Of a DNA stretch of 64,000 bases, positions 21,402 through 61,195 are shown piece by piece. Below the pieces are notes generated by a model. The model was given only the letters and a program-made list of their open reading frames with translations. It was not told the DNA's origin and did no database searches. Source of the DNA: a virus (taxonomy: Duplodnaviria > Heunggongvirae > Uroviricota > Caudoviricetes); IMG/VR virus record IMGVR_UViG_3300027734_000050, positions 1 through 64,000 of that record, one strand, 5' to 3'. Each line of letters begins with the position of its first letter. Within the stretch, counting starts at the first letter, position 1. A program made the position numbers and the translations under genes.

Positions 21402-21486
21402 CAAGCATATTGCGGTGTGTATTCGAAAGACCGATCACCTTGGCGTTTCGATGTTTTCGCAAGTGATTTTACAATATGCTTTTGAT
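21402..21486 (+). other. tmRNA intervening segment closed by the inverted repeat aagcatattg / caatatgctt
   Basis: Arms at 21403-21412 and about 21468-21477 bring the CCA end and the GGGCCTG 5' end together. This arrangement is typical of permuted ssrA precursors. Confidence 0.55.
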
Positions 21487-21694: not shown

Positions 21695-21748
21695 GATTGA
21701 CACACCCGGGCTTTTCGTGTATACTGACATTTTTAACCAAGGAGTCTT

Positions 21749-41747: not shown

Positions 41748-42931
41748 TTTATATCTCAATAGATCACTTGCATCCTGTTACCCGTAGACCTATGCCTAAT
41801 GGTATACCTGTACATCAGCATGATCAGATTGATCAATTAGGCAACGATAGATTGGATTTTCCTCGCATAATTTACTATCTACGTGATTGTAAAATCTCCT
41901 ATCAAATAGTAAACCCTGCCCACGCACCTGTTGGATCATGGTATCCGATGGTGCTAAGTTGGTTTGATTTCAGCCGAGACTATATGTCATTGATAAGCCC
42001 AGCAGCATTGAGTCGTATCAAAGCAAAAGAAATGCTAGTGGTGTTCACTTACCACGAAGGAGATCATCCTGGACGTATCCGTGATAGATTGGACACACTT
42101 TGTTCCGATCACGGGATAGATCCTGCTATGACATGGTTGATATCAGGCAATACAACTGCCGATCAATATCCAAACTCCGTGTATTGGCCTGAATTGGAAT
42201 TCATGTATTGGCGGACCGTGGATAGAAACTCAGGTGCTCAGTATCACCTCAATCCTAGGTCACAAGCATATACTGGATTATGCCGTATAGATAAACTATG
42301 GCGCAAGGTATTCATGAGTGATCTGTGGAGTCATGGATTGCACAAACAAGGTTACTTCAGTTACACTCAACATCTACTAGGAGGCGAGGACAACTACTAC
42401 GAATGTGCATTAAGAAATAGTTATCTTGCTGAATGTCAACTCAGGGTAGATCAGTTCATTGCTGCCGGACCATTTCTTGTGGATGATCTAGATACTCGGG
42501 CTCACAATACCTATGATCAGAACATGACTGACTTGTACACAGACAGTTACTTCAACATTGTGTTAGAGACCATGATCGATATTGATGATTCTGGTGGACA
42601 GTTTATCACAGAAAAAACTTTTAAACCCATATTCAACAATCAATTCTTTGTGGCTGTGAGTTCCGCAGATCATCTCCGACATCTACGTGATCTAGGATAT
42701 CAGACCTTTGGAAGATGCATAGATGAGAGTTACGATTCAAACACCAACAATCAAGATCGATTCGAATCTGTGTTGGATCTTACCAAGTCATTGATACAAT
42801 CAGGGCAGGATAATTTGCATCGTCTGTACGAGGATCTTGCACCTGAGATACAACACAATGCTCGAGTGTTCCAGTCAGGAATGGCTCACCGATTGAAAGT
42901 GGTCGTGGATCGCATCAACTGCAAACTTTGA
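41744..42931 (+). CDS. glycosyltransferase-like paralog family member (~395 aa)
   Basis: C-terminal block TEKTFKPIFNNQFFV...LRDLGYQTFGRCIDESYD. Start at MIYISIDH. Confidence 0.5.
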   Translation: MIYISIDHLHPVTRRPMPNGIPVHQHDQIDQLGNDRLDFPRIIYYLRDCKISYQIVNPAHAPVGSWYPMVLSWFDFSRDYMSLISPAALSRIKAKEMLVVFTYHEGDHPGRIRDRLDTLCSDHGIDPAMTWLISGNTTADQYPNSVYWPELEFMYWRTVDRNSGAQYHLNPRSQAYTGLCRIDKLWRKVFMSDLWSHGLHKQGYFSYTQHLLGGEDNYYECALRNSYLAECQLRVDQFIAAGPFLVDDLDTRAHNTYDQNMTDLYTDSYFNIVLETMIDIDDSGGQFITEKTFKPIFNNQFFVAVSSADHLRHLRDLGYQTFGRCIDESYDSNTNNQDRFESVLDLTKSLIQSGQDNLHRLYEDLAPEIQHNARVFQSGMAHRLKVVVDRINCKL

Positions 42932-44390
42932 TTCCATAACACCGTTGGAATCGATCGGCATCTCTGGGATCGTTGACCATGGGCTCACCACGTATGTTGA
43001 GGCTGGTGTTTAACAGCATAGGGCATCCGGTCATCACATACCACTTTTCTAGTAGTTGTCGGATGCCTGATCCATCTCTAGGTACAGTTTGTACCCTGCT
43101 GGTGCCATCTACATGCACAATAGCAGGAAACTGACCTGGATCACGACATTCTGCTGTGACCTGCATGTATGGGCTGGTATCGAAGTTAGGCGGCATATAA
43201 AAGTATTCTGCTGCGTATTCTTCTAGGATCACAGGTGCAAATGGTCGGAACTTTTGTCTGCGTTTGATCTCATTCACCCGGTTCTTGATTGAATGTCCTC
43301 TTGGGTCTGCTAGTAGACTGCGATTGCCCAGCGCCCGCGGTCCGAACTCTGCACGGCCTGATGCCACACCCACTATCTTGTCCGTGACTAGATGATCCAA
43401 GATTTCATTTACCGGGTAAGCACCGGGTATATTATGTCCCAGAAAAGTGTCTCGCCAATTAACACGGCCACCATGAGCCAAACAACTAGCACCGAGACTA
43501 TTGCCAGCATCGCCCGGATTAGGCATAATCCAAATTTTTTCATAGTATTGTCCTAAGAATCTATTTGCCAGGCAGTTCAATGCTACACCACCACCGTATA
43601 CTAGATTACGGCTGCGGCCATGCTCTCTGGCTTTTTGTAGAACATCTCGTATCATGCTTTCCACTAGAAATTGTGCTGTGCTGGCAATGTTTGCAGGATC
43701 AGCATGAGGCAGAAAGTCATCGCCTACTCCAATGTGTAGATTCTGTTTAAAGCGGAGTCCAGGTATGGTATCTACTAACTGTTTTCTCATCTCGTCGAGA
43801 TACAGTGGCTCACCATATGCTGCCATGCCCATGAGTATGTATTCTTCATCCATGGGCTTTAACCCTACACGAGCAGTCATAGCCGAATAGAACAATCCAA
43901 TACTATCAGGATATCGCAGACTCCACACTTTCTTGTATCGTGCTCGACCGTTTTCATACCAAGCATCCCAGATGGTCACAGTGTCAAACTCGCCAATGGC
44001 ATCTATCACCACAACTGTGGCATCTTCAAATGGGCTGGTCTGGAATCCCCCTGCTGCATGACACAAGTGATGCCCATGTGTGTGTATTTTAGGACGCCCT
44101 ATGATTCTGTATGAAGGTCCTAGTAATCGATCCCAACTGGGCCATTGAAATCCTTCACCGCTGCGTAGGTGTCGCATGGCTTTGATCCAAGGGCGTTCAT
44201 AGTAGTGATACTCTAGTTTATCGGAATCTGTATGCGCTAATGCGTCCAATACAAGATGATCATTGAGATCCTTATCGTGCTTTTTCTTGCTGTAGCGTTC
44301 GCTGTGAGCAGCAAACAAGATATCGCCAGCCTGATTGACCACACTCACTGCGGCATCATGGAAGCCGGCTGAGATGCCTATGTAATTCAT
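42915..44390 (-). CDS. NodU/CmcH-family carbamoyltransferase
   Basis: N-terminal MNYIGISAGFHDAAVSVV is the hallmark of the Kae1/YgjD-like carbamoyltransferase N-domain. 491 aa. Confidence 0.7.
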   Translation of the reverse strand: MNYIGISAGFHDAAVSVVNQAGDILFAAHSERYSKKKHDKDLNDHLVLDALAHTDSDKLEYHYYERPWIKAMRHLRSGEGFQWPSWDRLLGPSYRIIGRPKIHTHGHHLCHAAGGFQTSPFEDATVVVIDAIGEFDTVTIWDAWYENGRARYKKVWSLRYPDSIGLFYSAMTARVGLKPMDEEYILMGMAAYGEPLYLDEMRKQLVDTIPGLRFKQNLHIGVGDDFLPHADPANIASTAQFLVESMIRDVLQKAREHGRSRNLVYGGGVALNCLANRFLGQYYEKIWIMPNPGDAGNSLGASCLAHGGRVNWRDTFLGHNIPGAYPVNEILDHLVTDKIVGVASGRAEFGPRALGNRSLLADPRGHSIKNRVNEIKRRQKFRPFAPVILEEYAAEYFYMPPNFDTSPYMQVTAECRDPGQFPAIVHVDGTSRVQTVPRDGSGIRQLLEKWYVMTGCPMLLNTSLNIRGEPMVNDPRDADRFQRCYGIKVCS

Positions 44391-44484
44391 TTGTAGATAA
44401 AGGGATCGCGTTTGCGAAGTTCTCGCAGTTTTTTACGATAGCGTATCTCTAGTGTGATCTTTGCCCATAGTCTTTTAATCCAAT

Positions 44485-45561
44485 TCATCGCATGCTCCTT
44501 ATTTGTTGCAACTCATAATCGGCATCGCTCCACCGATACTCATATGTAGCCTGAGCACGATTGGTACGTATTTTATATACATCTAGATGAGTTTCCATCT
44601 GTCTCCATATTTCATCATGGTTGGTAGTACCGAAACTGCGAATTAAATCCACTTGGGCTACTTTTGGGTGGCCAATGGTCAGTGACTTGTCATCCGGATC
44701 AAACCCGTTTTGTGCGAGCCATGTTCTAAACTCAGCCAGTGCCCGGATCTGCCACTCATAAGACGCAGGATCTTTTGCCCATTCGATATCAAAGTCACCG
44801 GCTGCTTCTGTCTGTGAACGTAATGCACCGGTGACCAATTCGCCTATCCGACTGTCACGCCCTTCGTCATTGAACACTTCCCAATGATGTTTGCCTACCG
44901 CTTTATTTACACCCACATACACCCCGCCTAGGCTTCGATTGATTGTTTCTATACCAAACAATTCGTAATCTTCTGCGTCTAGCACAAATCTTGGTGCTTT
45001 CAACCAACACATCAACTGTGATGGTCTGCGCCATTCAGGTGATTCAATCAGTCTGCGAATACTTAGAACCAGACTTTCATGTTCGTGACACAACAAGTTC
45101 AACTGCCGTATATGCCATCGTGTTACATCATCTGCGGCAGTATAGTAAGGGCTCATGGCACCCGAGGTACCTTGGAGATCCTCAAAATATCTGTGCAATC
45201 GATTCATTAGATCTCGATTGACTCCGTCCCACCCCTTGGATTCTGTGTTTGATCCGGCAATCAACCAATCCGCGGACACAGTATTTTCCGGAGTGAATGA
45301 ATCTGTGATCGTGTATCCTAACCCGGCTGAATTGATTGCTGTGATGCTGCGATTGATCTGTTCGCAAATATATGCAATTGAGCGATCACTGTTGGCCCAT
45401 CCTAGCCAGCAGTAGTTTTTTTCTAGATGATAATTGTTTTGTACTAGATGATCAAGTGCAGCCAACCATTTGCGTGAAAGACTATTATCTTCCACATCAA
45501 TGTATACTGTTAGCACATGATCGTTTTTGTCACGTAAATCTATTTCAATTGTATCAAGCAA
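44485..45561 (-). CDS. hypothetical protein (358 aa) in the modification locus
   Basis: Long ORF, translationally coupled (overlap) with the downstream radical SAM gene. Confidence 0.5.
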   Translation of the reverse strand: MLDTIEIDLRDKNDHVLTVYIDVEDNSLSRKWLAALDHLVQNNYHLEKNYCWLGWANSDRSIAYICEQINRSITAINSAGLGYTITDSFTPENTVSADWLIAGSNTESKGWDGVNRDLMNRLHRYFEDLQGTSGAMSPYYTAADDVTRWHIRQLNLLCHEHESLVLSIRRLIESPEWRRPSQLMCWLKAPRFVLDAEDYELFGIETINRSLGGVYVGVNKAVGKHHWEVFNDEGRDSRIGELVTGALRSQTEAAGDFDIEWAKDPASYEWQIRALAEFRTWLAQNGFDPDDKSLTIGHPKVAQVDLIRSFGTTNHDEIWRQMETHLDVYKIRTNRAQATYEYRWSDADYELQQIRSMR

Positions 45562-46843
45562 TGTTCATCCACCATTTCAGTACATCGGGCCTTACCGACA
45601 GGATATCGGTCATAGTCACGGGTTGTGTTCTTATCTGTTCTAATTGTAACACACGAGTACGGCCTTGAGCAAGAGCAGATTGGTATTGATCAGGCCATTG
45701 TTCTTCAAATGTAGGACGATTCTTCAACTGTGTCAATACATCTCGCATGGCGCCCGATGTATCTGCTATCAATTCATCTAGCCATGGTTCTAACAAGTGT
45801 CTAGGCAGAGCCAATGGGCTCATGATGATGTCCGGAGAGAATGAAAAGATGACTTTGGCTAGAACATCTACACCGAATTGTCTAGCGAGTTCTGTAATTT
45901 TGCCAACTTCGAACATTCCGGGCAGAGTGAGCGTAAAGTCAATTCTGACTTGACGAGGGTGACGCTGGATCGCAACTGCGTTACCGAAGTTTTCAAGCCA
46001 TTGATCATAATCAAGACCTGTTCTAATGTATTCACCAATTGTGCCTGTACCGTCGAGACTTGCACATATCTGCCAATCGCGTAGCCCAGGAAGAACGTCG
46101 CGATAGAGATTGATGCCACGATACTCCACCCTGGATAAGTTTGTATTATATCTAGCATATACTTTCGGCCCATCCCCTAGTTCTATTATGCGTTGCATGT
46201 AGCGCCAATGCTGTTCATACATCAATGGTTCGCCGCCCACCCAATATACTTCTTCTACTCTGTGCTGTTCTACAGCATCACTGAACTCACGTTCAATTTG
46301 ACTATCCTGGAACTTGGAGATCTGCTCACGTACCTCGGGCTGCATCCAGTTATTTTTAGGATTGCTCCAATTGACCATGTGATGTGTCTTTTGTTCCGAC
46401 TCCCAACTACTACTCAGCATGTCTCCGCAGGTTCTACATTTGAAGTTGCACAGGTTGCTGAATCTATAATCCCAACTCACTGGTTGCATGGTAGTGCGAC
46501 CGGTAGCATCTGTTTGTTCTAAAATTGCGGAGTATTTATGTTGAAACAAATGGCTAAAGTATGTGCGATAAACATCAGTATTCAAAAGTTGATCATTGCA
46601 GACCTCGCATTCAGGCAATCGTTCACCGGCCATCATGCGGCGCCGAACTGATCGCATGTGATCACCGTTCCAATGTTCCTCAAGGGTGATAGGAATATAG
46701 GTGCCGGTACCTGATTTAGTATCTATATATTGCTGGAAGTTTTGTGCTGGCTCGCGGCTAGCACAGCACATGCGCCTTTCAGTCTGTGGAGAGAGATAAG
46801 TGTGTACCCAAGGCGCTAAACATAGAGAATTAGGTTTTTGCAT
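45554..46843 (-). CDS. radical SAM protein, paralog A (N-terminal Cys-rich domain plus CxxxCxxC)
   Basis: N-terminal CLAPW...CC...PECEVC, then CNFKCRTC. Shares FS(N/S)xW and GGEP blocks with the other paralogs. Confidence 0.65.
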   Translation of the reverse strand: MQKPNSLCLAPWVHTYLSPQTERRMCCASREPAQNFQQYIDTKSGTGTYIPITLEEHWNGDHMRSVRRRMMAGERLPECEVCNDQLLNTDVYRTYFSHLFQHKYSAILEQTDATGRTTMQPVSWDYRFSNLCNFKCRTCGDMLSSSWESEQKTHHMVNWSNPKNNWMQPEVREQISKFQDSQIEREFSDAVEQHRVEEVYWVGGEPLMYEQHWRYMQRIIELGDGPKVYARYNTNLSRVEYRGINLYRDVLPGLRDWQICASLDGTGTIGEYIRTGLDYDQWLENFGNAVAIQRHPRQVRIDFTLTLPGMFEVGKITELARQFGVDVLAKVIFSFSPDIIMSPLALPRHLLEPWLDELIADTSGAMRDVLTQLKNRPTFEEQWPDQYQSALAQGRTRVLQLEQIRTQPVTMTDILSVRPDVLKWWMNIA

Positions 46844-48041
46844 AGTTTAAAATATGTGCCAATTCCAGGGCTACCTTTTTTAGATCCTGTTGTCTGCGTT
46901 GATCTAATCGGCGTATCTGTTGTCGTGTTTCTTCACCGTCGGTCGATTCCCCGCGAATCATAAAGTCGATGATACGGCCAAACTCTGCACGAAATTGCTC
47001 AGGTGCCTCGCAAGTGCTGAGATAATCAGCAATGTGTTGTTTGGCATCAGATGGCAATCTTGAGATTGAAAAATACCATGCATCGTGCATCATGTTCCAA
47101 TATACAAAATCAAAATCTTGTAATGCTATCCACAATGCCACTTCGTCAAGATATCGCACATTGAATACATTCACTGTGGTGCAGCATTGTAACTGCAAGT
47201 TAGGCATACCTTCTCTCATGAATCTAAAACGATCGATGTTCTCTTTTACTGTTCCCCAGGATGCATTTGAGCGTTGATATTCAAAACGTGGCCCAATGTC
47301 ATCAACACTAAACGCAATCTCTACAGTCTTAAAATGTTTCCATATTTCCGGGCCTCTCAACGGAAACAGCGTTCCATTGGTGTTGTAATGTATCTCAACC
47401 TGGCCAGCAATCCCACGATCCACTATTCCTTGTAACATATCAAAGTGCTGTTCGATCATGAATGGTTCGCCGCCAGTGAATTCAATGTATCGTATATCGT
47501 CAAGCACACTATCAATCTGAGACCAGAAATGATCGTTATCTTTGGGCCATGCACCTGCTCGCAACATTTTGTAAGCATGGCTAGATTTTTGTTCGTTGCG
47601 CGGCATGAAAGAAATTTCTTCTCCGGCGAACTGTGAACTGGACCAGGAACCGCAGATCCTACATTTGAGATTGCAGATGTTCCCCAGTTTGAGATCTAAG
47701 AACATCAATGGTTTGGCATCCTGTGTCCAATGGTCATGCTTGAGCGTGTGTTTTAGACGATCTAGGGTGTGCATACGTTTTGATGTACGTCCTGCATCTT
47801 CTTCGTTCCAACATTTCCTACAAGTTTCTGGCTTTTGCCCTGCAAGGAATCCTGTGCGTAATTCGCGCATGTGATTGCTATTTTGTATGTCAGCAAAGTC
47901 AGCCGTGGTTAATTCAAACTTGTTTCCATCGTTGTCTAGGATCTCATCGTCGGCCAAACAACAAGGTCTTACTGTGCCAATGGGGCTGGCCTCTAGACTG
48001 ATCCAAGGTAATACACAGAATTGATCGTGCGGCAAGTTCAA
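46830..48041 (-). CDS. radical SAM protein, paralog B
   Basis: CVLPW...PCC...TCRKCW, then CNLKCRICGSWSS. Confidence 0.65.
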   Translation of the reverse strand: MNLPHDQFCVLPWISLEASPIGTVRPCCLADDEILDNDGNKFELTTADFADIQNSNHMRELRTGFLAGQKPETCRKCWNEEDAGRTSKRMHTLDRLKHTLKHDHWTQDAKPLMFLDLKLGNICNLKCRICGSWSSSQFAGEEISFMPRNEQKSSHAYKMLRAGAWPKDNDHFWSQIDSVLDDIRYIEFTGGEPFMIEQHFDMLQGIVDRGIAGQVEIHYNTNGTLFPLRGPEIWKHFKTVEIAFSVDDIGPRFEYQRSNASWGTVKENIDRFRFMREGMPNLQLQCCTTVNVFNVRYLDEVALWIALQDFDFVYWNMMHDAWYFSISRLPSDAKQHIADYLSTCEAPEQFRAEFGRIIDFMIRGESTDGEETRQQIRRLDQRRQQDLKKVALELAHILNYAKT

Positions 48042-49294
48042 AATAAAATCTTTCTATCTGCTTGTTTGAAAATCTCAACCAACTCATTGTATTGTGGATG
48101 ATCAGGATTGTATATATTTTTCTGCTCGAATACCTCAGTTGACCAAGTGCCCCAGTTCCACATTTTCTGAAAATTAACATTGGTGATACCCAACTGATCA
48201 CAGAGTTTGACGAAAGCCGGAATTTCTTTATAGTTATCTAGTTGTACAACAAAGTCCGCAGTGATTTGAAGAGGGTGTTGGTTTTTTTTAATGATGTGTT
48301 GTACCCAACGAACATTATCTAACAATTGATTCCACTGTCCGTTGACTCTGATTTTTTTATAAGTTTCTTCTGTGGCAGCATCAAAACTTATTCTCAATTC
48401 TTGTAATGTAGGAAGTAGTTTTTCTAACATGTCTGATTTAGATCGTAGATAACTCCCATTGGTTTGTATAATGTGTTTGATGTTTTGTTTGCCAGTGGCC
48501 AGTATGTATTCCAACAATTCAATGTAAACATCACTGATAAACGGCTCGCCGCCGGCCCATCTGATTTCTATGGGTTGTGATTGTATCTGATCAATTACAA
48601 GATGTTTGATTTTAGTTACTATTTGATCATTGATTGAACGGATGACATGATGATTGTTGTTGTTTATCAATTCAGTCCTGCAACTAGGGCATCGAAAATT
48701 ACAAGTATAGTCAAAATCAAATATAAGATTTTTAGGAATTTCAGATACCAATAACTGGTCGTGACTCACAAATTCCAATGGCACGTGGTTTGATTGAGGA
48801 TCACTGTGATATCTCTCTGGACTTACTTGTCCAAAAAATCCGCAGATCTGATTATTACAATAGAAATATCTTCCAGCAACAATTTCTTGACGTATGCGTT
48901 GAGCAGATTCTGAATTCAAAACATCATATACATTGTCAACATGTAATATATTACCCACAAATTTTGGAACCCAACTTGGACTACTACACACAAAAACTTC
49001 TCCGTTGTTGTTCACACCCATGGTACTCCATGGTACCTGGCATATCGGTTGCTCGTGATAATTTTTATCAAAAAATATCTGTTTCTGTCGTTGTTGATTA
49101 TTTTCGGCAAGTATGCTGCCATCTATAGTTATATCTGAGTATGTTTGCTGCATCATGCTAACAAACTCATCAACTTCTCGTTGTATATCTGGATGGTCTG
49201 CAGGAATACCAGATATGATATCGTCTAGGCTTGGCCAAGAAGGTCCGGCAAATGTCTTATAGTCTAACTGACCGATGATTTTTTTTAAGTTCAT
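48038..49294 (-). CDS. radical SAM protein, paralog D (longer N-terminal extension)
   Basis: CQVPW...VCSSP...CNNQICG, then CNFRCPSC. Confidence 0.6.
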   Translation of the reverse strand: MNLKKIIGQLDYKTFAGPSWPSLDDIISGIPADHPDIQREVDEFVSMMQQTYSDITIDGSILAENNQQRQKQIFFDKNYHEQPICQVPWSTMGVNNNGEVFVCSSPSWVPKFVGNILHVDNVYDVLNSESAQRIRQEIVAGRYFYCNNQICGFFGQVSPERYHSDPQSNHVPLEFVSHDQLLVSEIPKNLIFDFDYTCNFRCPSCRTELINNNNHHVIRSINDQIVTKIKHLVIDQIQSQPIEIRWAGGEPFISDVYIELLEYILATGKQNIKHIIQTNGSYLRSKSDMLEKLLPTLQELRISFDAATEETYKKIRVNGQWNQLLDNVRWVQHIIKKNQHPLQITADFVVQLDNYKEIPAFVKLCDQLGITNVNFQKMWNWGTWSTEVFEQKNIYNPDHPQYNELVEIFKQADRKILF

Positions 49295-50550
49295 GTCAAT
49301 GCCTGCAATTCAGGTATTACATCAAGCAAACGTTCTGCACGTATATCGTCTAGTTCATGTGTTTTACGCCAGAAGGTATCAATGAGATGTGTGTTGTCAG
49401 TGGCCATCATGAATTTAATAGCCGACTCAAACCCAACACTGGCACGTTGCAATGGATCATTGTCTCGCAACCAGTTAATGTGTTCTTGGTACTTCATCCG
49501 TAGACGTTGTTTGTATTTTATTGTAGCAATGTCGATTCTTAAATGTGCAGGATCTTGTAAGATGTTTACATTAAGGTCCTGCGGGCGTATCAACCCACGT
49601 TCAACCCAATCTCGATGAAAATCAGGTAAATGCCAAGCATTCATGATGCTTAGAGTAGGGCTGATGTAAAAATCTACATCAGGACATATTTTCAACATCT
49701 CTATCCTGTTTTGTTCAACACGATTCCAATCTGTACCTTTGCGTATATATTCAGCATACTTTGTTGATCCGTCAAGGCTGGCCCCCACTGCTACGCTGTC
49801 AAACTGTTTCCAATATTCAAAAACACTCTGCCCTTTTAGATCTGTATGTGTGAAGTTTGTATTGTAGATCAATCTCACATCAAATCGTCCTCGACGAACA
49901 AGTTCATCTAAAATCCGATAATGTTCTTCCATCAGCAAAGGCTCACCACCGGCAAAGTATATCTGCTCTACATAATCGATGTGAGGTAACAACTGTTCCC
50001 ACATGTCAGTTTCTGTACGACCTGCGTAGTTTAATACCCGATTGCGATCTTTCCAGTCACCCCCGGCCAACTTGACCTGATCCTGATACCATTGGCTTGA
50101 GAAGATATGCCCACAACTGCGACATTTGAGATTACAGAGATTTGAAAAACGTATGTCCCAATAGGTCATTTCAAAAGGATTCTTGTCTAACTTTTTGATG
50201 TGATGACCATGATGTTTGTTTGCACTTTTGCGACCTGAAAAGAATCCCGATTGTTCTTGCTCGTAACAACGACCACAAGCAGCATTGGGTGTTTCATTCA
50301 ACATATCTGCCCGTAACTGTTGCATGGGTTGATCTTTCCATATCTCTTCAAGTGTGCTGGATCTACAATTGCCCACTGGATATTTCATCTCTGAGTGACA
50401 ACAAGGATATGCTTCCCCGGTAGGGTAGGCATGTAGATGTATCCAAGGGTAAATGCAGAATGTTTTCGAATCTGTTAATAAGAATTCTTCACGTTCTGTG
50501 AGATCCACAGGCCTCACTAGATTTGTACTATTATATTTGTAATCACTCAT
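49291..50550 (-). CDS. radical SAM protein, paralog C
   Basis: CIYPW...PCC...ACGRCY, then CNLKCRSCGHIFSSQW. Confidence 0.65.
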   Translation of the reverse strand: MSDYKYNSTNLVRPVDLTEREEFLLTDSKTFCIYPWIHLHAYPTGEAYPCCHSEMKYPVGNCRSSTLEEIWKDQPMQQLRADMLNETPNAACGRCYEQEQSGFFSGRKSANKHHGHHIKKLDKNPFEMTYWDIRFSNLCNLKCRSCGHIFSSQWYQDQVKLAGGDWKDRNRVLNYAGRTETDMWEQLLPHIDYVEQIYFAGGEPLLMEEHYRILDELVRRGRFDVRLIYNTNFTHTDLKGQSVFEYWKQFDSVAVGASLDGSTKYAEYIRKGTDWNRVEQNRIEMLKICPDVDFYISPTLSIMNAWHLPDFHRDWVERGLIRPQDLNVNILQDPAHLRIDIATIKYKQRLRMKYQEHINWLRDNDPLQRASVGFESAIKFMMATDNTHLIDTFWRKTHELDDIRAERLLDVIPELQALT

Positions 50551-51289
50551 ACAGATGTTGCCAATGTTGTAAAATTGTTTTTTCCAGATTTAAATTTAAA
50601 TTTCCAACAAATGTACTTGGGGTCAGCAATACAAATTCTGAAAATTGTACGAGAAATTTTGTAATGTCAGAATGCAGTCGATCTTCTTCATGCGAGTCGG
50701 CCCTGAACAGCACAAATTTGGTTTTTGAATTTCGACATTTTAAAACTATTTCATTCACATACTTTGTAAAATCATAAAAACTGTTATCGCAGACTCTACT
50801 TAGTTGTAGCACTACATTTCTGTCAGTCAAGTCTGTTATCATTACTTGTTTCCATAACTCTTGATTGTTTTTGACTTTTATAATCTGGCAGTTACTAGAT
50901 GATGGGTTAAAATACGTGACTATATAACACCATGGAATCTGTGATTGTATGATCACATCCTGCCATTTTTTTAGATAGATACAGGTAGTCAAAGTTATAT
51001 TAAAAATTGAGAGATCGTTATAGCTAAGTAGGTCTTGATCTAACATTATTAACAAATCAAATTTTTTACACATCAATCTCAAATAATCCACAGTTATGGT
51101 TCCAATATCTGTGTAATAACACCCAGGTAAGATGTCCAGTACAGATTCGATTAATAACCCGTTTAAGGGTATAGCATATTGTATTGATATCATCTTGGAC
51201 TTGAGTGCGGTGTCCTCTGAACTATTACCTAGGCATAGTATTTTCATTGTTGCCAGGCCCGAGAACTTTCTTGAAACCAATTTTTCCAT
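50543..51289 (-). CDS. hypothetical protein (248 aa) in the modification locus
   Basis: ORF translationally coupled to its neighbours. AT-rich. Confidence 0.45.
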   Translation of the reverse strand: MEKLVSRKFSGLATMKILCLGNSSEDTALKSKMISIQYAIPLNGLLIESVLDILPGCYYTDIGTITVDYLRLMCKKFDLLIMLDQDLLSYNDLSIFNITLTTCIYLKKWQDVIIQSQIPWCYIVTYFNPSSSNCQIIKVKNNQELWKQVMITDLTDRNVVLQLSRVCDNSFYDFTKYVNEIVLKCRNSKTKFVLFRADSHEEDRLHSDITKFLVQFSEFVLLTPSTFVGNLNLNLEKTILQHWQHLYE

Positions 51290-51876
51290 AGCTTTGCAAC
51301 CAGGCCAACATCTAGTTCTAAATTTAATTTTTTATCTAATAGAATAATCTGATCTAAATATGTATCCTCATTAAAAAAACTATCAAACGGAATCGGGAGT
51401 AATCGATCTTGAAACATATTTTGTAATTTCAGTTGATGCTGATACTCATCATCAAAATCAAGATAATACTGTTTGGCTTTTTGATTGTTTATTAAAAAAT
51501 CTTTATGGCTTGGAGTGACTTGAACTGAGATAACTTTTTCGTAGAAATTATCGCCCCACAATATATTTTTTGTATATTGATTGTAAAAATCGACAGGATG
51601 CCATTGATCAATTAACCATAGTTTGGATTGTTCATAATGATAAAAATCAACTAGCCCACGTTTAAAATTTAAACAATCTTTGGTTTCTTCTTTTTTCCAG
51701 TTTTGGCTGTCCCATATTGAGTATCGATTGAATTTTTCTTCCGCAGTTAGTGTTTTTTCATATTCCCTGAGATCTCGTCCAGATGTTCCGGTGATTGTTT
51801 TCTCACTGAGAGTCAATGTTTTATACAACATATTTCCAGCAGACCCTGGCAAATAAATGATTGTTGCTTTTAACAT
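51244..51876 (-). CDS. hypothetical protein (210 aa), possibly P-loop/sulfotransferase-like
   Basis: N-terminal IIYLPGSAGN is a Gly-rich loop. Weak. Confidence 0.35.
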   Translation of the reverse strand: MLKATIIYLPGSAGNMLYKTLTLSEKTITGTSGRDLREYEKTLTAEEKFNRYSIWDSQNWKKEETKDCLNFKRGLVDFYHYEQSKLWLIDQWHPVDFYNQYTKNILWGDNFYEKVISVQVTPSHKDFLINNQKAKQYYLDFDDEYQHQLKLQNMFQDRLLPIPFDSFFNEDTYLDQIILLDKKLNLELDVGLVAKLWKNWFQESSRAWQQ

Positions 51877-51882
51877 AGTCGA

Positions 51883-53214
51883 TCAGAGAGTATGATACCA
51901 AGGTTTTAGTGCAGGAAATGCTAGATCAAAGCATTTGCCTCGACGCTGATCATATTGTGCGTAGAACTGCTTAAAGTCATTCAGCAACTTGGGCCGATCA
52001 AATGCTTCTGAGTGCGGAGTTTTGACTATGTCAAGATAATCAATCAAGCGTTGAACATGATTGACTTCGTGCTCATGCAAGAATTCACTATTCCACCAAG
52101 AGTCAAGCCAGACTTCTAACCGTTGTCGAAATACCGTGCGTAGTTCGTCGGGCAACACCAAAGGTGATTGGAAACTAGGAAATCGCAGGATGTTCAAGGT
52201 AAAACTCACAGCATCACGGCCGTATTCTATTTTCCAGTTCATTATGCATTCCAAGAACTGATCCAGTGAGCACAGACACAATGCATTGATTGTGTTCATG
52301 ATGTGTATGCCACGGAACTTACCTGAATCAAGAAGTCGTTCCACATTGTTGGCCCAGTCATCCCATACTAACCCGTCTCTGATATATTCGGCTTGCAGAC
52401 CTACACTTTCGTTGGATGTATATAAGTCAACTTCTAATCCATCAATGCTTGCTAACAATCGATCTAGATCCACCGCAGTGCCTAGATTTGAATTGATTGC
52501 CAAGCGTGTTTGGCTACGCCCTGGATTGTTCTTAAACCAGTCAATCAGTTTCCATGTCTCGCCCGACATCAGTGGCTCGCCACCGGTTATGCGGAGTTCT
52601 TGGAGGGTTCGATGTAGGTCCGACTCCCACCACGCAAAGAACGCCTCCACATAAGGATTGGTCTCACCGAAACTATAAAGCTGACTACTGCCATGATCGT
52701 GAGTAAAGTGATTCCTACCATCAGACACAAGACCTTGATAGGGTCCATTTTTACGAATGTCTCGAACCCAAGTGCTGCTGAATGCAGGATTACAATAACT
52801 GCAAGCAAATTGGCAAGTGCGGTCAAAAGCAATCTCCAAGGTACGGAGGTTGAAGTCTTGATCTGGTGAATTGGTATGTGCTTCATTTAACAACTCAATG
52901 GGGTAAATCTTACTCTTATACACACGGTCACTGATGGCATCACTGCCCATGTCTTCTATCTTCCAGCAATACTCACAACCAGCAGGGCGCTCGCCCTCAA
53001 TCATCTTGCGACGATCCTCTTTCTTTTGATCAGTATTGTGCAGCAGCCTAGGGTTGGCCCGAACTTTATCAATGTCCACCAAATGGGCCGGCGGGTGATG
53101 GCAACTTGTAGTCATGCCACTTCCTAACCAGATGGTAGCATTGTACCATTTTGCTGCACAAAAACTTGCACTCTTGGTGTCTAGCACCTGTCGCTTGAAT
53201 TCTAAATCGGTCAT
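51883..53214 (-). CDS. radical SAM protein, paralog E
   Basis: CAAKW...SCHHPP...GCEYCW, then CQFACSYCNPAFSSTW. GGEP motif present. Confidence 0.65.
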   Translation of the reverse strand: MTDLEFKRQVLDTKSASFCAAKWYNATIWLGSGMTTSCHHPPAHLVDIDKVRANPRLLHNTDQKKEDRRKMIEGERPAGCEYCWKIEDMGSDAISDRVYKSKIYPIELLNEAHTNSPDQDFNLRTLEIAFDRTCQFACSYCNPAFSSTWVRDIRKNGPYQGLVSDGRNHFTHDHGSSQLYSFGETNPYVEAFFAWWESDLHRTLQELRITGGEPLMSGETWKLIDWFKNNPGRSQTRLAINSNLGTAVDLDRLLASIDGLEVDLYTSNESVGLQAEYIRDGLVWDDWANNVERLLDSGKFRGIHIMNTINALCLCSLDQFLECIMNWKIEYGRDAVSFTLNILRFPSFQSPLVLPDELRTVFRQRLEVWLDSWWNSEFLHEHEVNHVQRLIDYLDIVKTPHSEAFDRPKLLNDFKQFYAQYDQRRGKCFDLAFPALKPWYHTL

Positions 53215-54323
53215 TGTTGTTGTAGGAATTGTAGAAATCGGTCAGGAAACTCCTGCCGGATCTTGGAACCCAGTTCCTTCATATGTTGTTGATTATACTT
53301 ACTTATTGCTTGGGCCGCAACCAGAAATTCATCTAAATCACCGGCACACAGATCTTGAACTATAGTGGCTATCCTATCCAATCGGTCTTGATTGTTATCG
53401 ATCAGATCAAACGATTCATCTATTAGAGTGTGATATGTTTGGAATCCTGCATGATGCAGATCTCTGTAAAAGCCACGATTGGCCACAACCACAAAAGGAT
53501 GACCCATGGCCATGGGTTTGTAGATCTTTTCACTGCGTAGACTGTATGGATAATCACATACTGTTTCGGTGACTAAACTAAAATAGGTATCAATGTATGG
53601 CTCCGCACGGATGTATACGTCACCCCATTGGTTATTGAACAGTTCGTGTTTGATAAAAGCGTGTTCAAATTGATTTTGAGTGTTGTTATGATATCTCTCT
53701 ACTTCATAATTGCTCGGCAACAAATGTATAGCAGATTGTCGACTCAATAAATCGGTCTGGTATGTATGATGATATACCAGTGTAGTGTCAAGATTGGTCC
53801 AAAGTGCATGTTCCAACAATTCGGCATCACGCATCTTTTCTATCATGTATTTTCTATGCGGGCGAGTACGGCCATTCAAGAACAAGAATTTGTAGGGCTT
53901 GTTTGTTTTGCTGTATATCTCATCCACTCGGCTGGATTGTTCCACATTTTGTTCATACCCAATCACCCGATTGAGATAACAATCATACACTAGACAATTG
54001 AGTTCAGGTTCCATTTCGCCACACCCGACCAGCAAAAGTTTCTTTTGGGTTACTAGATCCAGCAGCCCTAGCCCCTGGCATTGTAGTTTCAGAGTGCTTG
54101 ATCCTTCACTAGGGTTGGCCAATACAGGTAAGAAGAATCCTTCTGTGGCCAATTCTTTTATCCTTGATGAGTACTGGTTTACTGTTTGTCGAGCAAATAT
54201 TGTGATTGAATTGGCCACAGGTTCATGCTGATCGAAATCCCAAAATGTATCATCTACTAGATGTTTGATTTCAGGATAGATCTCACATTGAGTGTCACAG
54301 ATGATAGTTCGGTTACCTAGCAT
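53211..54323 (-). CDS. glycosyltransferase-like paralog family member (370 aa)
   Basis: C-terminal block SEKIYKPMAMGHPFVVV...LHHAGFQTYHTLIDESFD. Confidence 0.5.
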   Translation of the reverse strand: MLGNRTIICDTQCEIYPEIKHLVDDTFWDFDQHEPVANSITIFARQTVNQYSSRIKELATEGFFLPVLANPSEGSSTLKLQCQGLGLLDLVTQKKLLLVGCGEMEPELNCLVYDCYLNRVIGYEQNVEQSSRVDEIYSKTNKPYKFLFLNGRTRPHRKYMIEKMRDAELLEHALWTNLDTTLVYHHTYQTDLLSRQSAIHLLPSNYEVERYHNNTQNQFEHAFIKHELFNNQWGDVYIRAEPYIDTYFSLVTETVCDYPYSLRSEKIYKPMAMGHPFVVVANRGFYRDLHHAGFQTYHTLIDESFDLIDNNQDRLDRIATIVQDLCAGDLDEFLVAAQAISKYNQQHMKELGSKIRQEFPDRFLQFLQQQ

Positions 54324-55686
54324 GTAGACTGCATTGTTTCCACCAAGAGATCATTTCAGGAAATGTTTTTTCAAAGTCTGTGCCTCTGCGGCGATCATGT
54401 TCGCTGAAAAATCTGTAAAAATCTGCTAGGTGTTGAGGGCTAGTTGTATTCAACGCTGATCGCATCCATGCTATATCACGCTCGAGCCGTTGCACTTCAT
54501 AGTCCTTGAAACCATGAAACGGATCGGCCGCAGTTTCTAGGTTGGCCAACATAAAGTCTCGTGCTTGTTCTAGTTTTGCAGCATAACTTTCAGGCAAGGT
54601 CTGAAGGCTTTGCCATGCCGGTTGTCGCAGCACAGGTGTGTCAAACCACACACGCTGATATGTCTTGCTGTATTGGCGGCGTAGATCTAGTATCCATTGC
54701 ATCAATGGCAGGAAGCCTGTTACACTTAAATTGTTCATTGTGATGATAAAGGTCAGACTATTACGATATGGAATGTCCGTGAGATATGTTTCCACATTGT
54801 TTTTCAATCTGTCAAAATCCAAGCCATGGCGTATGTATTCTGCTTGTGGGCCTATGCCCGAATCAAGGCTCACATACTGCATGAAGTGTTCAATGTCAGT
54901 GCTGCATAGTCGTTGAACATAGTCAAAGTATTTTGTTGATAGTTCGGGCTCTACACTGAAGTTTGATGTCACGGCCAAATGTAGATCGCTTTTTGGATTC
55001 TCCAACACATAGTCAAACACTCTGTAGGTGTTTCGATCCATCAGTGGTTCGCCACCGGTCATGCGGAAGTGTTTGAGTTCAGGATACAGACTAGGCCACC
55101 AAGCCCAGAATGCTTCTACATAAGGGTTGTGATCACGGGCAGGGATAGGCCTGCGGCTGCCGCTAAAATGCTCAGCAGCGTTATGAGGAACCAAAGTAGG
55201 AAATGCCCCGTGGCGTTCAACTTCTTGCTGCCAACTAGAGCTGAACTGCGGGCTGCAATAGCTGCATTTAAGGTTGCAGGCATTGTTAAAATTGACTTCC
55301 ACATATGACGGTACGACATCTTCATCTCCAGTTGAGTTTTTTATCCGTTCAAAATCCACGGCTGCCCAGGGCTCACCAGATCTATAATGTCGATCGCTGA
55401 GTTGTCCTAGATCTTCCATGTTCCAACAGTAACTGCATTCAGTGGGTCTCTGTTGTTGTAGCATTATCTTGCGTTGTTCTTTTTTATGCTGGGTATTATG
55501 CAAAGCAGCAGGATTGACAGCAATCGCAGCAGAATCTGTTGCATGCAAGGGCGGATGATAACAACTGTTATTTAATCCTGTAGTAAGATGCAAGCTGACC
55601 TGTTTCCATTTGGCCAGACACAATGCTGGCCCTAGATCTGTCTTCATCTGTTGAGCAGATACTATGAATTTACTTTGATCTGTCAT
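54313..55686 (-). CDS. radical SAM protein, paralog F
   Basis: CLAKW...SCYHPP...ECSYCW, then CNLKCSYCSPQFSSSW. Closest paralog to E. Confidence 0.65.
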   Translation of the reverse strand: MTDQSKFIVSAQQMKTDLGPALCLAKWKQVSLHLTTGLNNSCYHPPLHATDSAAIAVNPAALHNTQHKKEQRKIMLQQQRPTECSYCWNMEDLGQLSDRHYRSGEPWAAVDFERIKNSTGDEDVVPSYVEVNFNNACNLKCSYCSPQFSSSWQQEVERHGAFPTLVPHNAAEHFSGSRRPIPARDHNPYVEAFWAWWPSLYPELKHFRMTGGEPLMDRNTYRVFDYVLENPKSDLHLAVTSNFSVEPELSTKYFDYVQRLCSTDIEHFMQYVSLDSGIGPQAEYIRHGLDFDRLKNNVETYLTDIPYRNSLTFIITMNNLSVTGFLPLMQWILDLRRQYSKTYQRVWFDTPVLRQPAWQSLQTLPESYAAKLEQARDFMLANLETAADPFHGFKDYEVQRLERDIAWMRSALNTTSPQHLADFYRFFSEHDRRRGTDFEKTFPEMISWWKQCSLHAR

Positions 55687-60906: not shown

Positions 60907-61195
60907 TTACCACAACAGTCACATCATTGATATGGCAAAGTGTTCCTGAATCTGCAGGTACGAGTTTGGTCATCCTGGCAGTTCTACGTCTAACAATTTT
61001 TCCATCAACAACGTTCACTGCCCGGTCCTGCAATGCAAATTGCTCGGGTGTGACATCAACATACTTACCGGGCAACTCTTCATGACTGTAAAATAATGGT
61101 AGTCCTGCATCATCATAGTAGAGCCTATAGTATACCGGCTTGGCATCAGTCCATTTGTAGTTGTGCCAAAACTCTAAAAATTCTTGTTCAGACAT
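60851..61195 (-). CDS. hypothetical protein (114 aa)
   Basis: ORF overlapping its neighbours. Confidence 0.4.
   Translation of the reverse strand: MSEQEFLEFWHNYKWTDAKPVYYRLYYDDAGLPLFYSHEELPGKYVDVTPEQFALQDRAVNVVDGKIVRRRTARMTKLVPADSGTLCHINDVTVVVNDQPGQYWKKKENVVETN

Follow-up and report, generated by a model that had tools for sequence, protein, structure and literature searches.

Viperin and BlsE abstract hydrogen from sugar, cyclitol or ribose carbons, as do BtrN and MoaA. Both BtrN and MoaA have been described (PMC9012708), and in BtrN, the 2-deoxy-scyllo-inosamine dehydrogenase of the butirosin pathway (PDB 4M7S/4M7T), a twitch domain with four cysteine ligands follows the radical SAM core and its auxiliary cluster is fully ligated (PMC6231123). 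Many SPASM and twitch enzymes are RiPP maturases (PMC9012708, PMC6231123), and Tes is a lipid-modifying radical SAM enzyme (PMC13459092). The multi-copy family discussed here is also found in Vibrio phages K566, K567 and KVP40, Ralstonia phage RsoM2USA and uncultured freshwater Caudovirales, where its members are 21-40% identical to ours and are annotated just as "radical SAM" or "hypothetical".

The window, i.e. the whole stretch of 64,000 nucleotides that was analysed, comes from a giant (jumbo) freshwater phage and carries six related radical SAM ORFs, in which an extra Fe-S domain lies ahead of the catalytic core and not behind it. The array sits within a sugar-building gene cluster. The region encodes five conserved members of the family NF033640 and a distant relative, R3, and we lean towards the view that these enzymes tailor a sugar-type product one after another by radical chemistry.

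Family membership of the six radical SAM genes

All six ORFs reported in the earlier note are present on the minus strand (bit scores refer to the NCBIfam model NF033640):

54313..55686, minus strand: R6, predicted N-terminal-twitch radical SAM enzyme, 457 aa, 318 bits; Cys 23, 42, 84, 87 (twitch) and 137, 141, 144 (radical SAM)
51883..53214, minus strand: R5, predicted N-terminal-twitch radical SAM enzyme, 443 aa, 291 bits; Cys 19, 38, 80, 83 and 134, 138, 141
49291..50550, minus strand: R4, predicted N-terminal-twitch radical SAM enzyme, 419 aa, 387 bits; Cys 32, 50, 92, 95 and 139, 143, 146
48038..49294, minus strand: R3, divergent putative N-twitch radical SAM protein, 418 aa, 102 bits, below cutoff; Cys 85, 103, 146, 151 and 198, 202, 205
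46830..48041, minus strand: R2, predicted N-terminal-twitch radical SAM enzyme, 403 aa, TTG start, 332 bits; Cys 9, 27, 74, 77 and 123, 127, 130
45554..46843, minus strand: R1, predicted N-terminal-twitch radical SAM enzyme, 429 aa, 285 bits; Cys 8, 26, 79, 82 and 132, 136, 139

The ORFs R1, R2, R4, R5 and R6 match NF033640 ("N_Twi_rSAM") with 285-387 bits against a cutoff of 170 bits, and their E-values of 1e-84 to 1e-115 exclude a chance match. They cover essentially the whole model of 398 positions, R4 matching it best, and have in common the N-terminal twitch, the CxxxCxxC core and a helical C-terminal domain. By these profile scores the five are members of the N-terminal twitch radical SAM family, while R3, unlike them, stays below the cutoff and aligns with profile positions 3-300 only. 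The proposed group of six paralogs is thus a group of five with one distant outlier. Homologues in Paenibacillus, Lacrimispora, Saprospiraceae and other taxa bear the NCBI name "twitch domain-containing radical SAM protein"; R4 has more than 7000 homologues, and the best 120 of these are 83-100% identical to it. The model is of the "subfamily" type and has no assigned reaction, and our literature and PDB profile searches found no reported function or solved structure for any member. Of the match to a well-known radical SAM subfamily of defined function, which would have spoken against the earlier note, only half is borne out: the family has a name, but the searches gave no function for it.

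Pfam Radical_SAM matches all six ORFs (E 8e-11 to 6e-5), although its gathering score of 29.5 bits is reached only by R2 and R3, and CxxxCxxC and GGEP were found in every ORF, as had been claimed. In its twitch motif R1 has Thr instead of Gly. In a PDB profile search the best match of the family core is viperin (E 1.4e-10), and SkfB, anSME, BlsE and MoaA are matched as well. The model viperin_w_prok gives a weak match in all six ORFs, being the second-best NCBIfam match of R1 and R2 and the third of R3. We rejected the idea that R1-R6 are viperins, as they reach no more than 13-56 bits, a long way under that family's cutoff of 180 bits; moreover, viperin has neither an auxiliary cluster nor a twitch domain. 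An action on sugar-ring C-H bonds, actual or proposed, is common to viperin and the phage enzymes.

The divergence of the paralogs had been placed mainly in their middle region, which the pairwise comparison of the five family members does not bear out. Their mean identity is 31% in the segment GGEP..NTN, 26% around CX3CX2C and 20% in both the twitch and the core, and it falls to 9-10% in the linker between twitch and core, the insert between SSxW and GGEP, the post-core region and the C-terminal helical domain.

The N-terminal twitch domain

The cysteine domain at the N-terminus of R1-R6 is a twitch (half-SPASM) domain with the ligand pattern C-x17-18-C...C-x2-C (C-x4-C in R3). The R4 domain (residues 32-96) matches Pfam SPASM with E 3e-12 over positions 1-67 of 67; at the N-terminus R2, R3 and R4 score above the gathering score and R1 below it, and no Pfam SPASM match was obtained there for R5 and R6. 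Positions 13-85 of the family profile align to the C-terminal twitch of BtrN (residues 164-237, E 5.6e-7), and the AF2 model of R4 (pLDDT 94.5, pTM 0.91) has the canonical twitch order of secondary structure: Cys, beta-hairpin, Cys, helix, CxxC. An auxiliary Fe-S domain before the AdoMet radical core had been proposed from the ORFs, and this reading is right; yet the domain is not new, because it matches SPASM over its full length and can be aligned with the BtrN twitch. The architecture is already catalogued as NF033640, and the binding of an auxiliary cluster by the domain is predicted.

The conserved N-terminal cysteines are four, not the five that were described, because the second C of "CC" is found in only three of the six ORFs; it is a frequent extra cysteine (71/85 family members). 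"CC" occurs in R1, R2 and R4, whereas R3 reads CS and R5 and R6 read SC. In the numbering of R4, C32 is conserved in 80/80, C50 in 85/85, C92 in 84/85 and C95 in 85/85 family members; the three radical SAM cysteines are likewise invariant or nearly so among these 85 homologues. The full pattern is present in 131 of 135 single-unit members. The "CxxPW" motif becomes CxxKW in R5 and R6. Similarly, C-x2-C is common to all ORFs except R3, which has C-x4-C, an N-terminal extension of about 80 aa and no FSSxW.

The twitch is homologous to that of BtrN, including the Cys-hairpin-Cys and CxxC ligands, and four cysteines serve as ligands in BtrN as they would in the phage proteins. However, it precedes the core in the phage proteins and follows it in BtrN, the phage proteins exceed BtrN by about 150-200 aa in length and have an additional C-terminal helical domain, and the similarity between the two cores is insignificant. 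Pfam SPASM links the N-domain also to the SPASM enzymes (anSME, CteB, SuiB, PqqE) and to the twitch sactisynthase SkfB, but the seven-Cys motif with CX2CX5CX3C and the second auxiliary cluster are absent from the phage proteins and the domain order is inverted. The best PDB matches of the R4 model in Foldseek are anSMEcpe 4k37 (E 5e-6), CteB 5wgg and SkfB 6efn. Only the core superposes on the SPASM enzymes, because the TM-scores are just 0.33-0.38. The whole-chain fold is common to about 24 BFVD entries (TM 0.5-0.94), including Q6WHP4 of KVP40.

Gene neighbourhood

The radical SAM genes alternate with GT-B glycosyltransferases, four previously unannotated paralogs in all, and are surrounded by further genes:

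59956..62748, minus strand: module of U316, U258 and U266, whose order is kept next to the one family member of Ralstonia phage RsoM2USA
55683..56672, minus strand: GTd, putative paralog of the GT-B glycosyltransferases, 329 aa, with which the overlapping chain starts
53211..54323, minus strand: GTc, GT-B-fold glycosyltransferase between R6 and R5, 370 aa
50543..51876, minus strand: two small ORFs of 248 and 210 aa, without family matches in Pfam, PHROG and NCBIfam
44485..45561, minus strand: U358, conserved protein between R1 and pep33
44387..44488, minus strand: pep33, basic 33-aa peptide, MNWIKRLWAKITLEIRYRKKLRELRKRDPFIYK, with start and stop codons overlapping the neighbouring genes
42915..44390, minus strand: carbamoyltransferase of the NodU/CmcH/TobZ type (Pfam), last gene of the chain
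41693..42931, plus strand: GTb, GT-B paralog, 412 aa, 23% identity to GTc
40626..41747, plus strand: GTa, GT-B paralog, 373 aa, 23% identity to GTc and the same C-terminal motif
35962..39007, plus strand: sugar-nucleotide module of NAD-dependent epimerase/dehydratase, DegT aminotransferase and Gfo/Idh/MocA oxidoreductase (Pfam)

Overlapping start and stop codons link the chain from 56672 to 42915 on the minus strand, and its genes are probably translationally coupled. The C-terminal motif EK..(K/R)P...PF...G(F/Y)QT(F/Y)...DE is common to GTa-GTd; GTd has no Pfam, PHROG or NCBIfam match and its fold was assigned through its paralog GTc. GTa is kept in the related loci L001, L006, L007 and L009, and GTb is kept in related phage loci. 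The carbamoyltransferase (Carbam_trans_N E 3e-36, Carbam_trans_C E 6e-50) has homologues adjoining family members in 10 of the loci compared, four of these being bacterial and the other six phage or phage-like. The domains of the sugar-nucleotide module are recognised as Epimerase (E 4e-44), DegT_DnrJ_EryC1 (E 1e-102) and GFO_IDH_MocA (E 7e-10).

Profile searches gave no family match for pep33. Its orthologues in L001, L006, L007, L009, L010 and L011 have an almost invariant C-terminal half, and it is 88% identical in amino acids to the L001 peptide at saturated synonymous sites. U358 has no Pfam, PHROG or NCBIfam match either; it has orthologues in six related loci and a dN/dS of 0.046. In the stretch between U316 and GTd, which includes an AMP-binding (acyl-activating) gene at 57976-59058, the genes are missing from that place in L001, L006 and L007, and some have homologues in other relatives. 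U316 is 37% identical to its RsoM2USA counterpart (tblastn, E 5e-58), its GT-A/GT2-like match is weak (Glyco_tranf_2_3, E 0.0075), and BLAST finds homologues of U258 and U266 in L003.

Conservation in phages and bacteria

The order R6-R5-R4-R2-R1 is conserved in related freshwater jumbo phages of about 348 kb, and each of the five paralogs can be paired with one colinear orthologue down to about 50-60% identity; on this comparison they are an old colinear set. When compared with a relative whose synonymous sites are saturated, the genes have dN/dS of 0.05-0.07, and to judge from these ratios R1, R2, R4, R5 and R6 are under strong purifying selection. The values are 0.057 for R6 (89% identity to its L001 orthologue), 0.047 for R5 against L001 (orthologues also in L009, L010 and L011), and 0.067 for both R2, whose L001 orthologue is equal in length, and R1. 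R3 is confined to the lineage of the window (L004/L005), is missing from L001, L006 and L007, and its nearest homologue among the loci compared is 24% identical. It lies in a stretch of 36-38% GC, and the two small ORFs are also missing from L001, L006 and L007. The GC content of the small-ORF and R3 stretches is 0.356-0.38 vs about 0.44 in the flanks. R3 is thus a divergent, lineage-specific insertion, and together with the two small ORFs it makes up lineage-specific low-GC inserts within the array.

R6 has R5 as its sister paralog (33% identity), and the single RsoM2USA homologue is nearest to R6 (36%) and then to R5 (34%). In RsoM2USA the order of the U266-U258-U316-radical SAM module is kept, and in K566 four copies are interleaved with hypothetical proteins, but the other named phages have neither the five-member set nor the GT-B paralogs. 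In the literature searched we found no jumbo phage described with a colinear set of five members and GT-B transferases between them.

In bacteria tandem arrays and fusions of two to three units of the family are common, and about 38 of the best 150 metagenomic matches are such fusions. The family stands beside a carbamoyltransferase in four bacterial loci and beside DegT in four. The Bacteriovoracaceae locus L063 encodes also a Zn-dependent alcohol dehydrogenase and a small radical SAM protein with a C-terminal twitch/SPASM domain, a gene set that we judged to be aminocyclitol-like. A Paenibacillus homologue lies between genes for an ACP, a ketoreductase, two ketosynthases, a GT2 and a PPTase; loci of Saprospiraceae and Crocinitomicaceae encode UbiA prenyltransferases, PhyH dioxygenases and a WelO5-like halogenase; and Bacteroidota loci unite two to three family members with such enzymes and with ABC exporters. 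One isolate locus has no informative neighbours.

Proposed function and its alternatives

If the enzymes tailor a sugar-type product, the CxxxCxxC of each protein would bind a [4Fe-4S] cluster, which together with GGEP would bind and cleave S-adenosylmethionine to yield the 5'-deoxyadenosyl radical. A second cluster would sit on the four twitch cysteines, one before the beta-hairpin, one after it and the CxxC after the helix. It is probably fully ligated, because all four ligand positions are Cys, and would conduct or accept electrons, the role proposed in BtrN and anSME, and not serve as a substrate site as in MoaA. Each paralog would perform a different step initiated by hydrogen abstraction (oxidation, epimerisation, deoxygenation and C-C bond formation being candidates), and the target would be a sugar, aminosugar or nucleotide-sugar unit within a single glycoconjugate that the phage makes. 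A virion protein, the host envelope, DNA or a peptide may be the acceptor of this product. Family identity, twitch homology, purifying selection, colinear orthology and the GT-B neighbours are shown by the comparisons above. We infer the cluster stoichiometry, the electron-transfer role and the carbohydrate substrate by analogy, and the substrate class is drawn entirely from gene context, because no NF033640 member has a reported function or structure. This context is favourable: the array is bordered by genes for a carbamoyltransferase, DegT, an epimerase/dehydratase and Gfo/Idh/MocA, the solved proteins nearest by sequence profile (viperin, BtrN, BlsE and MoaA) all take hydrogen from sugar, cyclitol or ribose carbons, and BtrN acts on an aminocyclitol near DegT-type and dehydrogenase enzymes, a setting echoed in the phage cluster and in L063. 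Against the sugar reading speak the heterogeneous contexts of the family elsewhere (ACP and ketosynthase, UbiA and PhyH, the locus lacking informative neighbours), the frequency of peptide maturases among SPASM/twitch enzymes and the conserved 33-aa peptide in the gene chain.

One would argue from this peptide that the locus is a RiPP pathway, in which the twitch enzymes cross-link or epimerise pep33 before the neighbours glycosylate and carbamoylate it. Indeed, pep33 shares the gene chain and recurs in six related loci, and its C-terminal RYRK(K/R)LKELRKRDPFIYK hardly varies even where the enzymes are just 53-60% identical; weak NCBIfam matches to WgkB, YhhB and XyeB-type maturases point the same way, but they cover the generic radical SAM core only. 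Since Pfam and NCBIfam profiles detect an RRE/PqqD-like domain in none of the paralogs, and pep33 is without Cys, is missing from K566 and from every bacterial family array examined, is strongly basic and might just as well be a small protein that is regulatory or binds nucleic acid, we regard this pathway as improbable. The GT-B fold is also that of the T4 DNA glucosyltransferases, and jumbo phages often hypermodify their DNA. It could be that the enzymes act on nucleotides or on bases of the phage DNA and, with the GT-B transferases, make a glycosylated hypermodified base protecting the phage genome, for which the likeness of the core to viperin, acting on CTP, and the recurrent viperin_w_prok match would speak. 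We think this rather unlikely, given the subthreshold viperin scores, the lack of a hydroxymethylase, DpdA or kinase-type DNA-modification gene among the window genes examined, and the ABC exporters beside bacterial homologues, which suggest an exported product.

The Paenibacillus and Bacteroidota neighbours, the AMP-binding gene and the presence of Tes among the structural matches (Foldseek/PDB profile) would fit lipid, polyketide or terpenoid-type tailoring of unactivated acyl or prenyl carbons, with a glycolipid as the phage product. This too is an improbable reading, as Pfam finds no ACP, ketosynthase or prenyltransferase in the phage cluster, the AMP-binding gene is missing from its position in L001, L006 and L007, and the phage neighbours are mostly sugar enzymes. 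That the genes are recent tandem copies, redundant or decaying and without distinct roles, is hardly credible: the tandem arrangement and common architecture agree with it, but it is contradicted by the divergence of the paralogs (13-33% identity only), the own orthologue of each of the five, in the same order, in phages at 50-60% identity, and the low dN/dS, and the catalytic Cys and GGEP are all intact. The iterative or combinatorial tailoring of one substrate, which the earlier note had suggested, is plausible and fits the overlapping chain, the one-to-one orthology of the five paralogs and the fusions of two to three units.

N-terminal twitch domain of the radical SAM proteins

Six paralogous radical SAM ORFs had been claimed in the earlier note at the positions listed here, and all six were indeed found exactly there.

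The radical SAM ORFs and their scores against the family profile NF033640 (curated cutoff 170 bits, 398 positions)
45554-46843, minus strand: R1, radical SAM ORF with CxxxCxxC and GGEP; 284.8 bits, above cutoff
46830-48041, minus strand: R2, radical SAM ORF with CxxxCxxC and GGEP; 331.5 bits, above cutoff
48038-49294, minus strand: R3, radical SAM ORF with CxxxCxxC and GGEP; 102.5 bits, below cutoff, profile positions 3-300 of 398 only
49291-50550, minus strand: R4, radical SAM ORF with CxxxCxxC and GGEP; 386.8 bits, above cutoff
51883-53214, minus strand: R5, radical SAM ORF with CxxxCxxC and GGEP; 290.8 bits, above cutoff
54313-55686, minus strand: R6, radical SAM ORF with CxxxCxxC and GGEP; 318.0 bits, above cutoff

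The claim of one family stands for five of them: R1, R2, R4, R5 and R6 match NF033640 (NCBIfam "N_Twi_rSAM, twitch domain-containing radical SAM protein") over its whole length, whereas R3, being under 170 bits, is not counted as a member and is an outlier. Pfam Radical_SAM matches all six (E 8e-11 to 6e-5), and its gathering score of 29.5 bits is reached by R2 and R3 only. Membership among the viperins or prokaryotic viperins was rejected, as the six proteins score 12.9-55.8 bits where the cutoffs are 180 (NF038283) and 450 bits (TIGR04278). We consider the identity of these enzymes as N-terminal-twitch radical SAM proteins close to certain.

Mapping of every cysteine revealed four conserved N-terminal cysteines per protein and not the five that had been proposed. 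The first belongs to CxxPW (CxxKW in R5 and R6), the second follows 17-18 residues after it, and a CxxC pair lies 41-51 residues beyond the second (42 in R3, as C-x4-C); in R1, R2, R4, R5 and R6 the whole C-x17-18-C...CxxC pattern is located 46-50 residues upstream of CxxxCxxC. In the alignment of 85 family sequences the four twitch positions are Cys in 80/80, 85/85, 84/85 and 85/85 cases, and the same order of twitch before core is common to 131 of 135 single-unit homologues. The "CC" doublet of the earlier note is present in R1, R2 and R4 but reads CS in R3 and SC in R5 and R6, and its second cysteine is conserved in 71 of the 85 aligned sequences; a fifth essential cysteine was rejected on these counts.

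A twitch domain carries the first four SPASM cysteines, CX9-15GX4C-gap-CX2C, on a beta-hairpin followed by a helix (PMC6231123, PMC9012708). This expression is matched literally by R2-R6; in R1 the Gly is replaced by Thr. Pfam SPASM is detected at the N-terminus of four of the six proteins (R2, R3 and R4 above the gathering score, R1 below), residues 32-96 of R4 corresponding to SPASM positions 1-67 of 67 with E 3e-12. PDB sequence searches with R4 and R3 as single queries gave no significant match, so a family profile was needed. The profile of 85 members, searched against all PDB sequences, aligned at positions 13-85 with the C-terminal twitch of BtrN (chain residues 164-237, E 5.6e-7) and at positions of about 103-362 with the N-terminal cores of viperin (E 1.4e-10), SkfB, anSME, BlsE and MoaA. 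The AlphaFold2 model of R4 (pLDDT 94.5, pTM 0.91) has, according to DSSP, the order Cys32, beta-hairpin 40-48, Cys50, helix 74-84 and Cys92/Cys95, which in this predicted structure is the canonical twitch order. Foldseek comparison of the model with the PDB gave partial core superpositions only (TM 0.33-0.38), the best with anSMEcpe, followed by CteB, SkfB, BlsE and the viperins.

Judged from sequence, the N-terminal domain is thus a genuine twitch homologue with swapped domain order, and its four predicted cysteine ligands are enough for one auxiliary cluster. SPASM and twitch domains have been described as C-terminal extensions of the radical SAM core (PMC9012708, PMC13459092). In R1-R6, by contrast, the domain is N-terminal to the core; every solved SPASM/twitch enzyme has the domain order opposite to that of NF033640 proteins, and PDB sequence, profile and Foldseek searches found no solved structure with the N-terminal-twitch architecture. 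A full SPASM domain was rejected from the cysteine map: its seven-cysteine motif, which has CX2CX5CX3C plus a final Cys and binds two auxiliary clusters, is absent from R1-R6. The suggested auxiliary Fe-S domain ahead of the core is therefore upheld by the SPASM and BtrN matches, but it is not new: the twitch domain is known and the family is catalogued. In the literature searched we found no published work on the NF033640 family or on this cluster, and no reaction assigned to the family.

The gene array and its conservation

All genes from 56672 down to 42915 are on the minus strand and neighbouring ones overlap by 4-46 nt, a 6-nt gap being the sole exception; they probably form one chain of translationally coupled genes. 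A scan for sigma-70 sites gave no enrichment (59 sites, 56 expected from shuffles) and is given no weight here. With 11/12 matches, its best single site falls within the gap immediately upstream of 56672; it is only suggestive.

Five further loci preserve the order R6-R5-R4-R2-R1 as one-to-one orthologues, with identities of 70-89% in L001, L009 and L010 and about 40-70% in L011 and L012. When compared with L001 (GCA_050655815.1, a 347.5 kb relative), R1, R2, R5 and R6 show dN/dS of 0.05-0.07 at near-saturated synonymous sites, and these substitution rates indicate purifying selection; for R4 dN is 0.088 and the synonymous sites are fully saturated, hence no ratio is given. Redundant recent duplicates are essentially excluded by the low dN/dS, the colinear orthologues and a pairwise identity among the six paralogs of 13-33%, R5 and R6 being the most alike and R3 the most distant.

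R3 and two small ORFs at 50543-51876 are absent from the relatives L001, L006 and L007 and have 36-38% GC, as against about 44% in the flanks. In L011 and L012 other extra radical SAM genes are found inside the array, adjoining the R5-R4-R2 genes. Such additions, together with gains of the R3 type, indicate that five genes form the ancient core of the array, which is also a hot spot for additional members.

Low GC (36-39%) is seen at 48038-49294, 50543-51876 and 56704-59936, and the close relatives L001, L006 and L007 lack the genes at these positions. Besides R3, the genes are two unknown ORFs, a DUF6071/SGNH-like gene, an AMP-binding enzyme, a TctC-like binding protein and a truncated DegT fragment of 196 aa encoded on the opposite strand. 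All look like insertions into the cluster that are specific to this lineage.

The five-gene array is also carried by contigs binned to bacteria: L009 and L010 (Haliscomenobacter MAG), L011 (Legionellales MAG) and L012 (Porticoccaceae MAG), of which L009-L011 additionally carry the ORF U358, the peptide gene pep33 and the carbamoyltransferase. These contigs are probably mis-binned jumbo-phage DNA, or else the binning is possibly a clue to the host.

Gene context and possible function

The ORFs interleaved with the radical SAM genes have no Pfam, PHROG or NCBIfam match, and the searches of interleaved and flanking ORFs with these collections were almost all empty; therefore one ORF (GTc) was modelled for its fold. 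Four of these ORFs are paralogs with the common C-terminal motif EK..(K/R)P...PF...G(F/Y)QT(F/Y)...DE.

Paralogous ORFs with the C-terminal motif
40626-41747, plus strand: GTa
41693-42931, plus strand: GTb
53211-54323, minus strand: GTc, modelled for fold
55683-56672, minus strand: GTd

The model contains two Rossmann domains, and the interleaved ORFs are accordingly predicted to be GT-B glycosyltransferases. The flanking genes encode a carbamoyltransferase, an NDP-sugar epimerase/dehydratase, a DegT aminotransferase, a Gfo/Idh/MocA oxidoreductase, an AMP-binding enzyme and weakly GT-A-like proteins. Next to GTa, U542 (38999-40627, minus strand) has repeated segments of the "DFDF(S/L)W.P..W" type and a C-terminal domain homologous to U316 (59956-60906, minus strand), which has a weak GT2-like match. 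In Ralstonia phage RsoM2USA, homologues flank the single family radical SAM gene with this order preserved, an arrangement that suggests an older shared module.

With a threshold of E <= 1e-30, a profile of the six ORFs retrieved 6078 sequences, each representing a cluster at 50% identity. Fusions of two or three units account for about 38 of the best 150 matches. Such fusions of complete units, 750-1466 aa long, are seen in many family members (metagenomic proteins P0361-P0395 and others, and locus L031), which suggests that the paralogs act as physical partners. We located 198 family members in 87 fetched loci. Bdellovibrionota/Oligoflexia, Spirochaetaceae, Bacteroidota and a MAG labelled Elusimicrobia have arrays with 3-6 copies. 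Bacterial family members repeatedly have ABC exporters as neighbours (20 loci), as well as a carbamoyltransferase (10 loci, phage loci counted) and DegT (four bacterial loci). The locus L063 (Bacteriovoracaceae), with carbamoyltransferase, DegT, a Zn-dependent alcohol dehydrogenase and a small radical SAM protein with C-terminal SPASM/twitch, was judged aminocyclitol-like.

By analogy with characterised enzymes, each radical SAM protein would hold the SAM-cleaving [4Fe-4S] cluster and one auxiliary cluster fully ligated by cysteines. The auxiliary cluster is fully ligated in BtrN and anSME and has an open site in MoaA (PMC6231123, PMC9012708); full ligation as in the former two speaks for a part in electron transfer, while the substrate is oxidised or the radical is quenched. 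The gene context suggests that the substrates may be sugar, aminosugar or nucleotide-sugar units of one glycoconjugate and that each paralog may perform a different tailoring step, and the fusions suggest that the paralogs could work in physical contact. Taken together, two-cluster enzymes that act on a sugar-type substrate, one step per paralog, are the description towards which we lean slightly. More tentatively, the virus may encode an assembly line in which five radical SAM proteins, four novel GT-B transferases and the carbamoyltransferase make a glycan or glycopeptide, tailored by radical chemistry, for decorating the virion or remodelling the host surface; this is conceivable rather than probable. 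In view of the frequent fusions of two to three units, the radical SAM proteins may act in it as hetero-oligomers.

A RiPP pathway would make the radical SAM proteins act on pep33 (MNWIKRLWAKITLEIRYRKKLRELRKRDPFIYK), a basic peptide of 33 aa encoded at 44387-44488 (minus strand) between U358 (44485-45561) and the carbamoyltransferase (42915-44390), with start and stop codons overlapping both genes. The peptide is conserved in six related loci, where its C-terminal RYRK(K/R)LKELRKRDPFIYK is nearly invariant and more conserved than the surrounding enzymes. The other family arrays examined lack the peptide, which has neither Cys nor a recognised core motif. Against this pathway, no RRE/PqqD-like domain was found in R1-R6 and the neighbouring ORFs have no family match of that kind; we regard it as improbable. 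Tailoring of a lipid or polyketide-type product is equally improbable: a Paenibacillus locus has ACP, ketosynthase, ketoreductase and GT2 as neighbours of the family, and in Saprospiraceae/Crocinitomicaceae loci PhyH dioxygenases, UbiA prenyltransferases and a WelO5-like halogenase stand beside family members, while the phage array lies among the predicted glycosyltransferases and sugar enzymes. Nucleotide or DNA hypermodification is likewise an unlikely explanation.

If the assembly-line proposal is true, it would assign a first function to a radical SAM family that is large (at least 6000 clusters at 50% identity) and uncharacterised, and would reveal a new kind of phage-made natural product. 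NF033640 is large, without reported function, inverted in domain order and prone to arrays and fusions, and the phage clade is an unusually clean and approachable case of it, with five orthologous, strongly constrained paralogs, a compact chain and sugar enzymes that can be identified. The clade abounds in lake metagenomes, with thousands of variants; one solved substrate would lead to the annotation of thousands of genes and would show what the phage gains from about 14 kb of radical chemistry and glycosyltransferases. The advance made here is one of annotation and context, with no new principle.

A further set of loci in Saprospiraceae, Crocinitomicaceae and related Bacteroidota MAGs (L016, L048, L054 and L060) combines 2-3 family radical SAM genes with PhyH and UbiA, in most of them with the WelO5-like halogenase, with a carbamoyltransferase in L048 and L060 and with an ABC exporter in L016. 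It looks like an undescribed natural-product cluster type.

The host phage

The window comes from a jumbo phage (~348 kb), as indicated by its tRNA set, tmRNA, homing endonucleases and phage ATPase. The plus strand at 3924-21718 carries 37 tRNA genes, for all 20 amino acids (Rfam supports 35), and a tmRNA; the ATPase and its counterpart in PA5oct-like phages share 49% identity. The tmRNA, which follows the tRNA island, has the tag peptide ANDEQFALAA and matches the Betaproteobacteria family RF01850 with 120 bits, thus hinting at a betaproteobacterial host. The homing/HNH endonuclease genes at 22658-23650 and 32144-33454 (both plus strand), between the tRNA island and the sugar cluster, match PHROG 655 (E 4e-44) and PHROG 1314 (E 1e-104).

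Megablast of the 10 kb radical SAM region against 50,697 phage records gave no match, and tblastn gave only matches of 21-27% identity. R4 has more than 7000 homologues, of which the best 120 are 83-100% identical, come from metagenomes and lie on contigs of up to 348 kb; the sample ids looked up among the best metagenome matches (JGI) are presumably those of freshwater lakes. Viral relatives of the whole fold number about 24 BFVD models (TM 0.5-0.94), including KVP40 Q6WHP4 and many proteins of uncultured freshwater phages. Vibrio phage K566 has four family copies, and Ralstonia phage RsoM2USA has one, within a U266-U258-U316-radical SAM module syntenic with that of the window.

Two more radical SAM genes lie inside the tRNA island, at 14017-15549 and 19403-20446 (both plus strand). 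One is of the B12-binding type, with best NCBIfam similarity to PhpK/ladderane-type enzymes, and the other is generic and nearest to SPASM-type maturases; with the six ORFs of the array they bring the number of radical SAM proteins in the 64 kb to eight.
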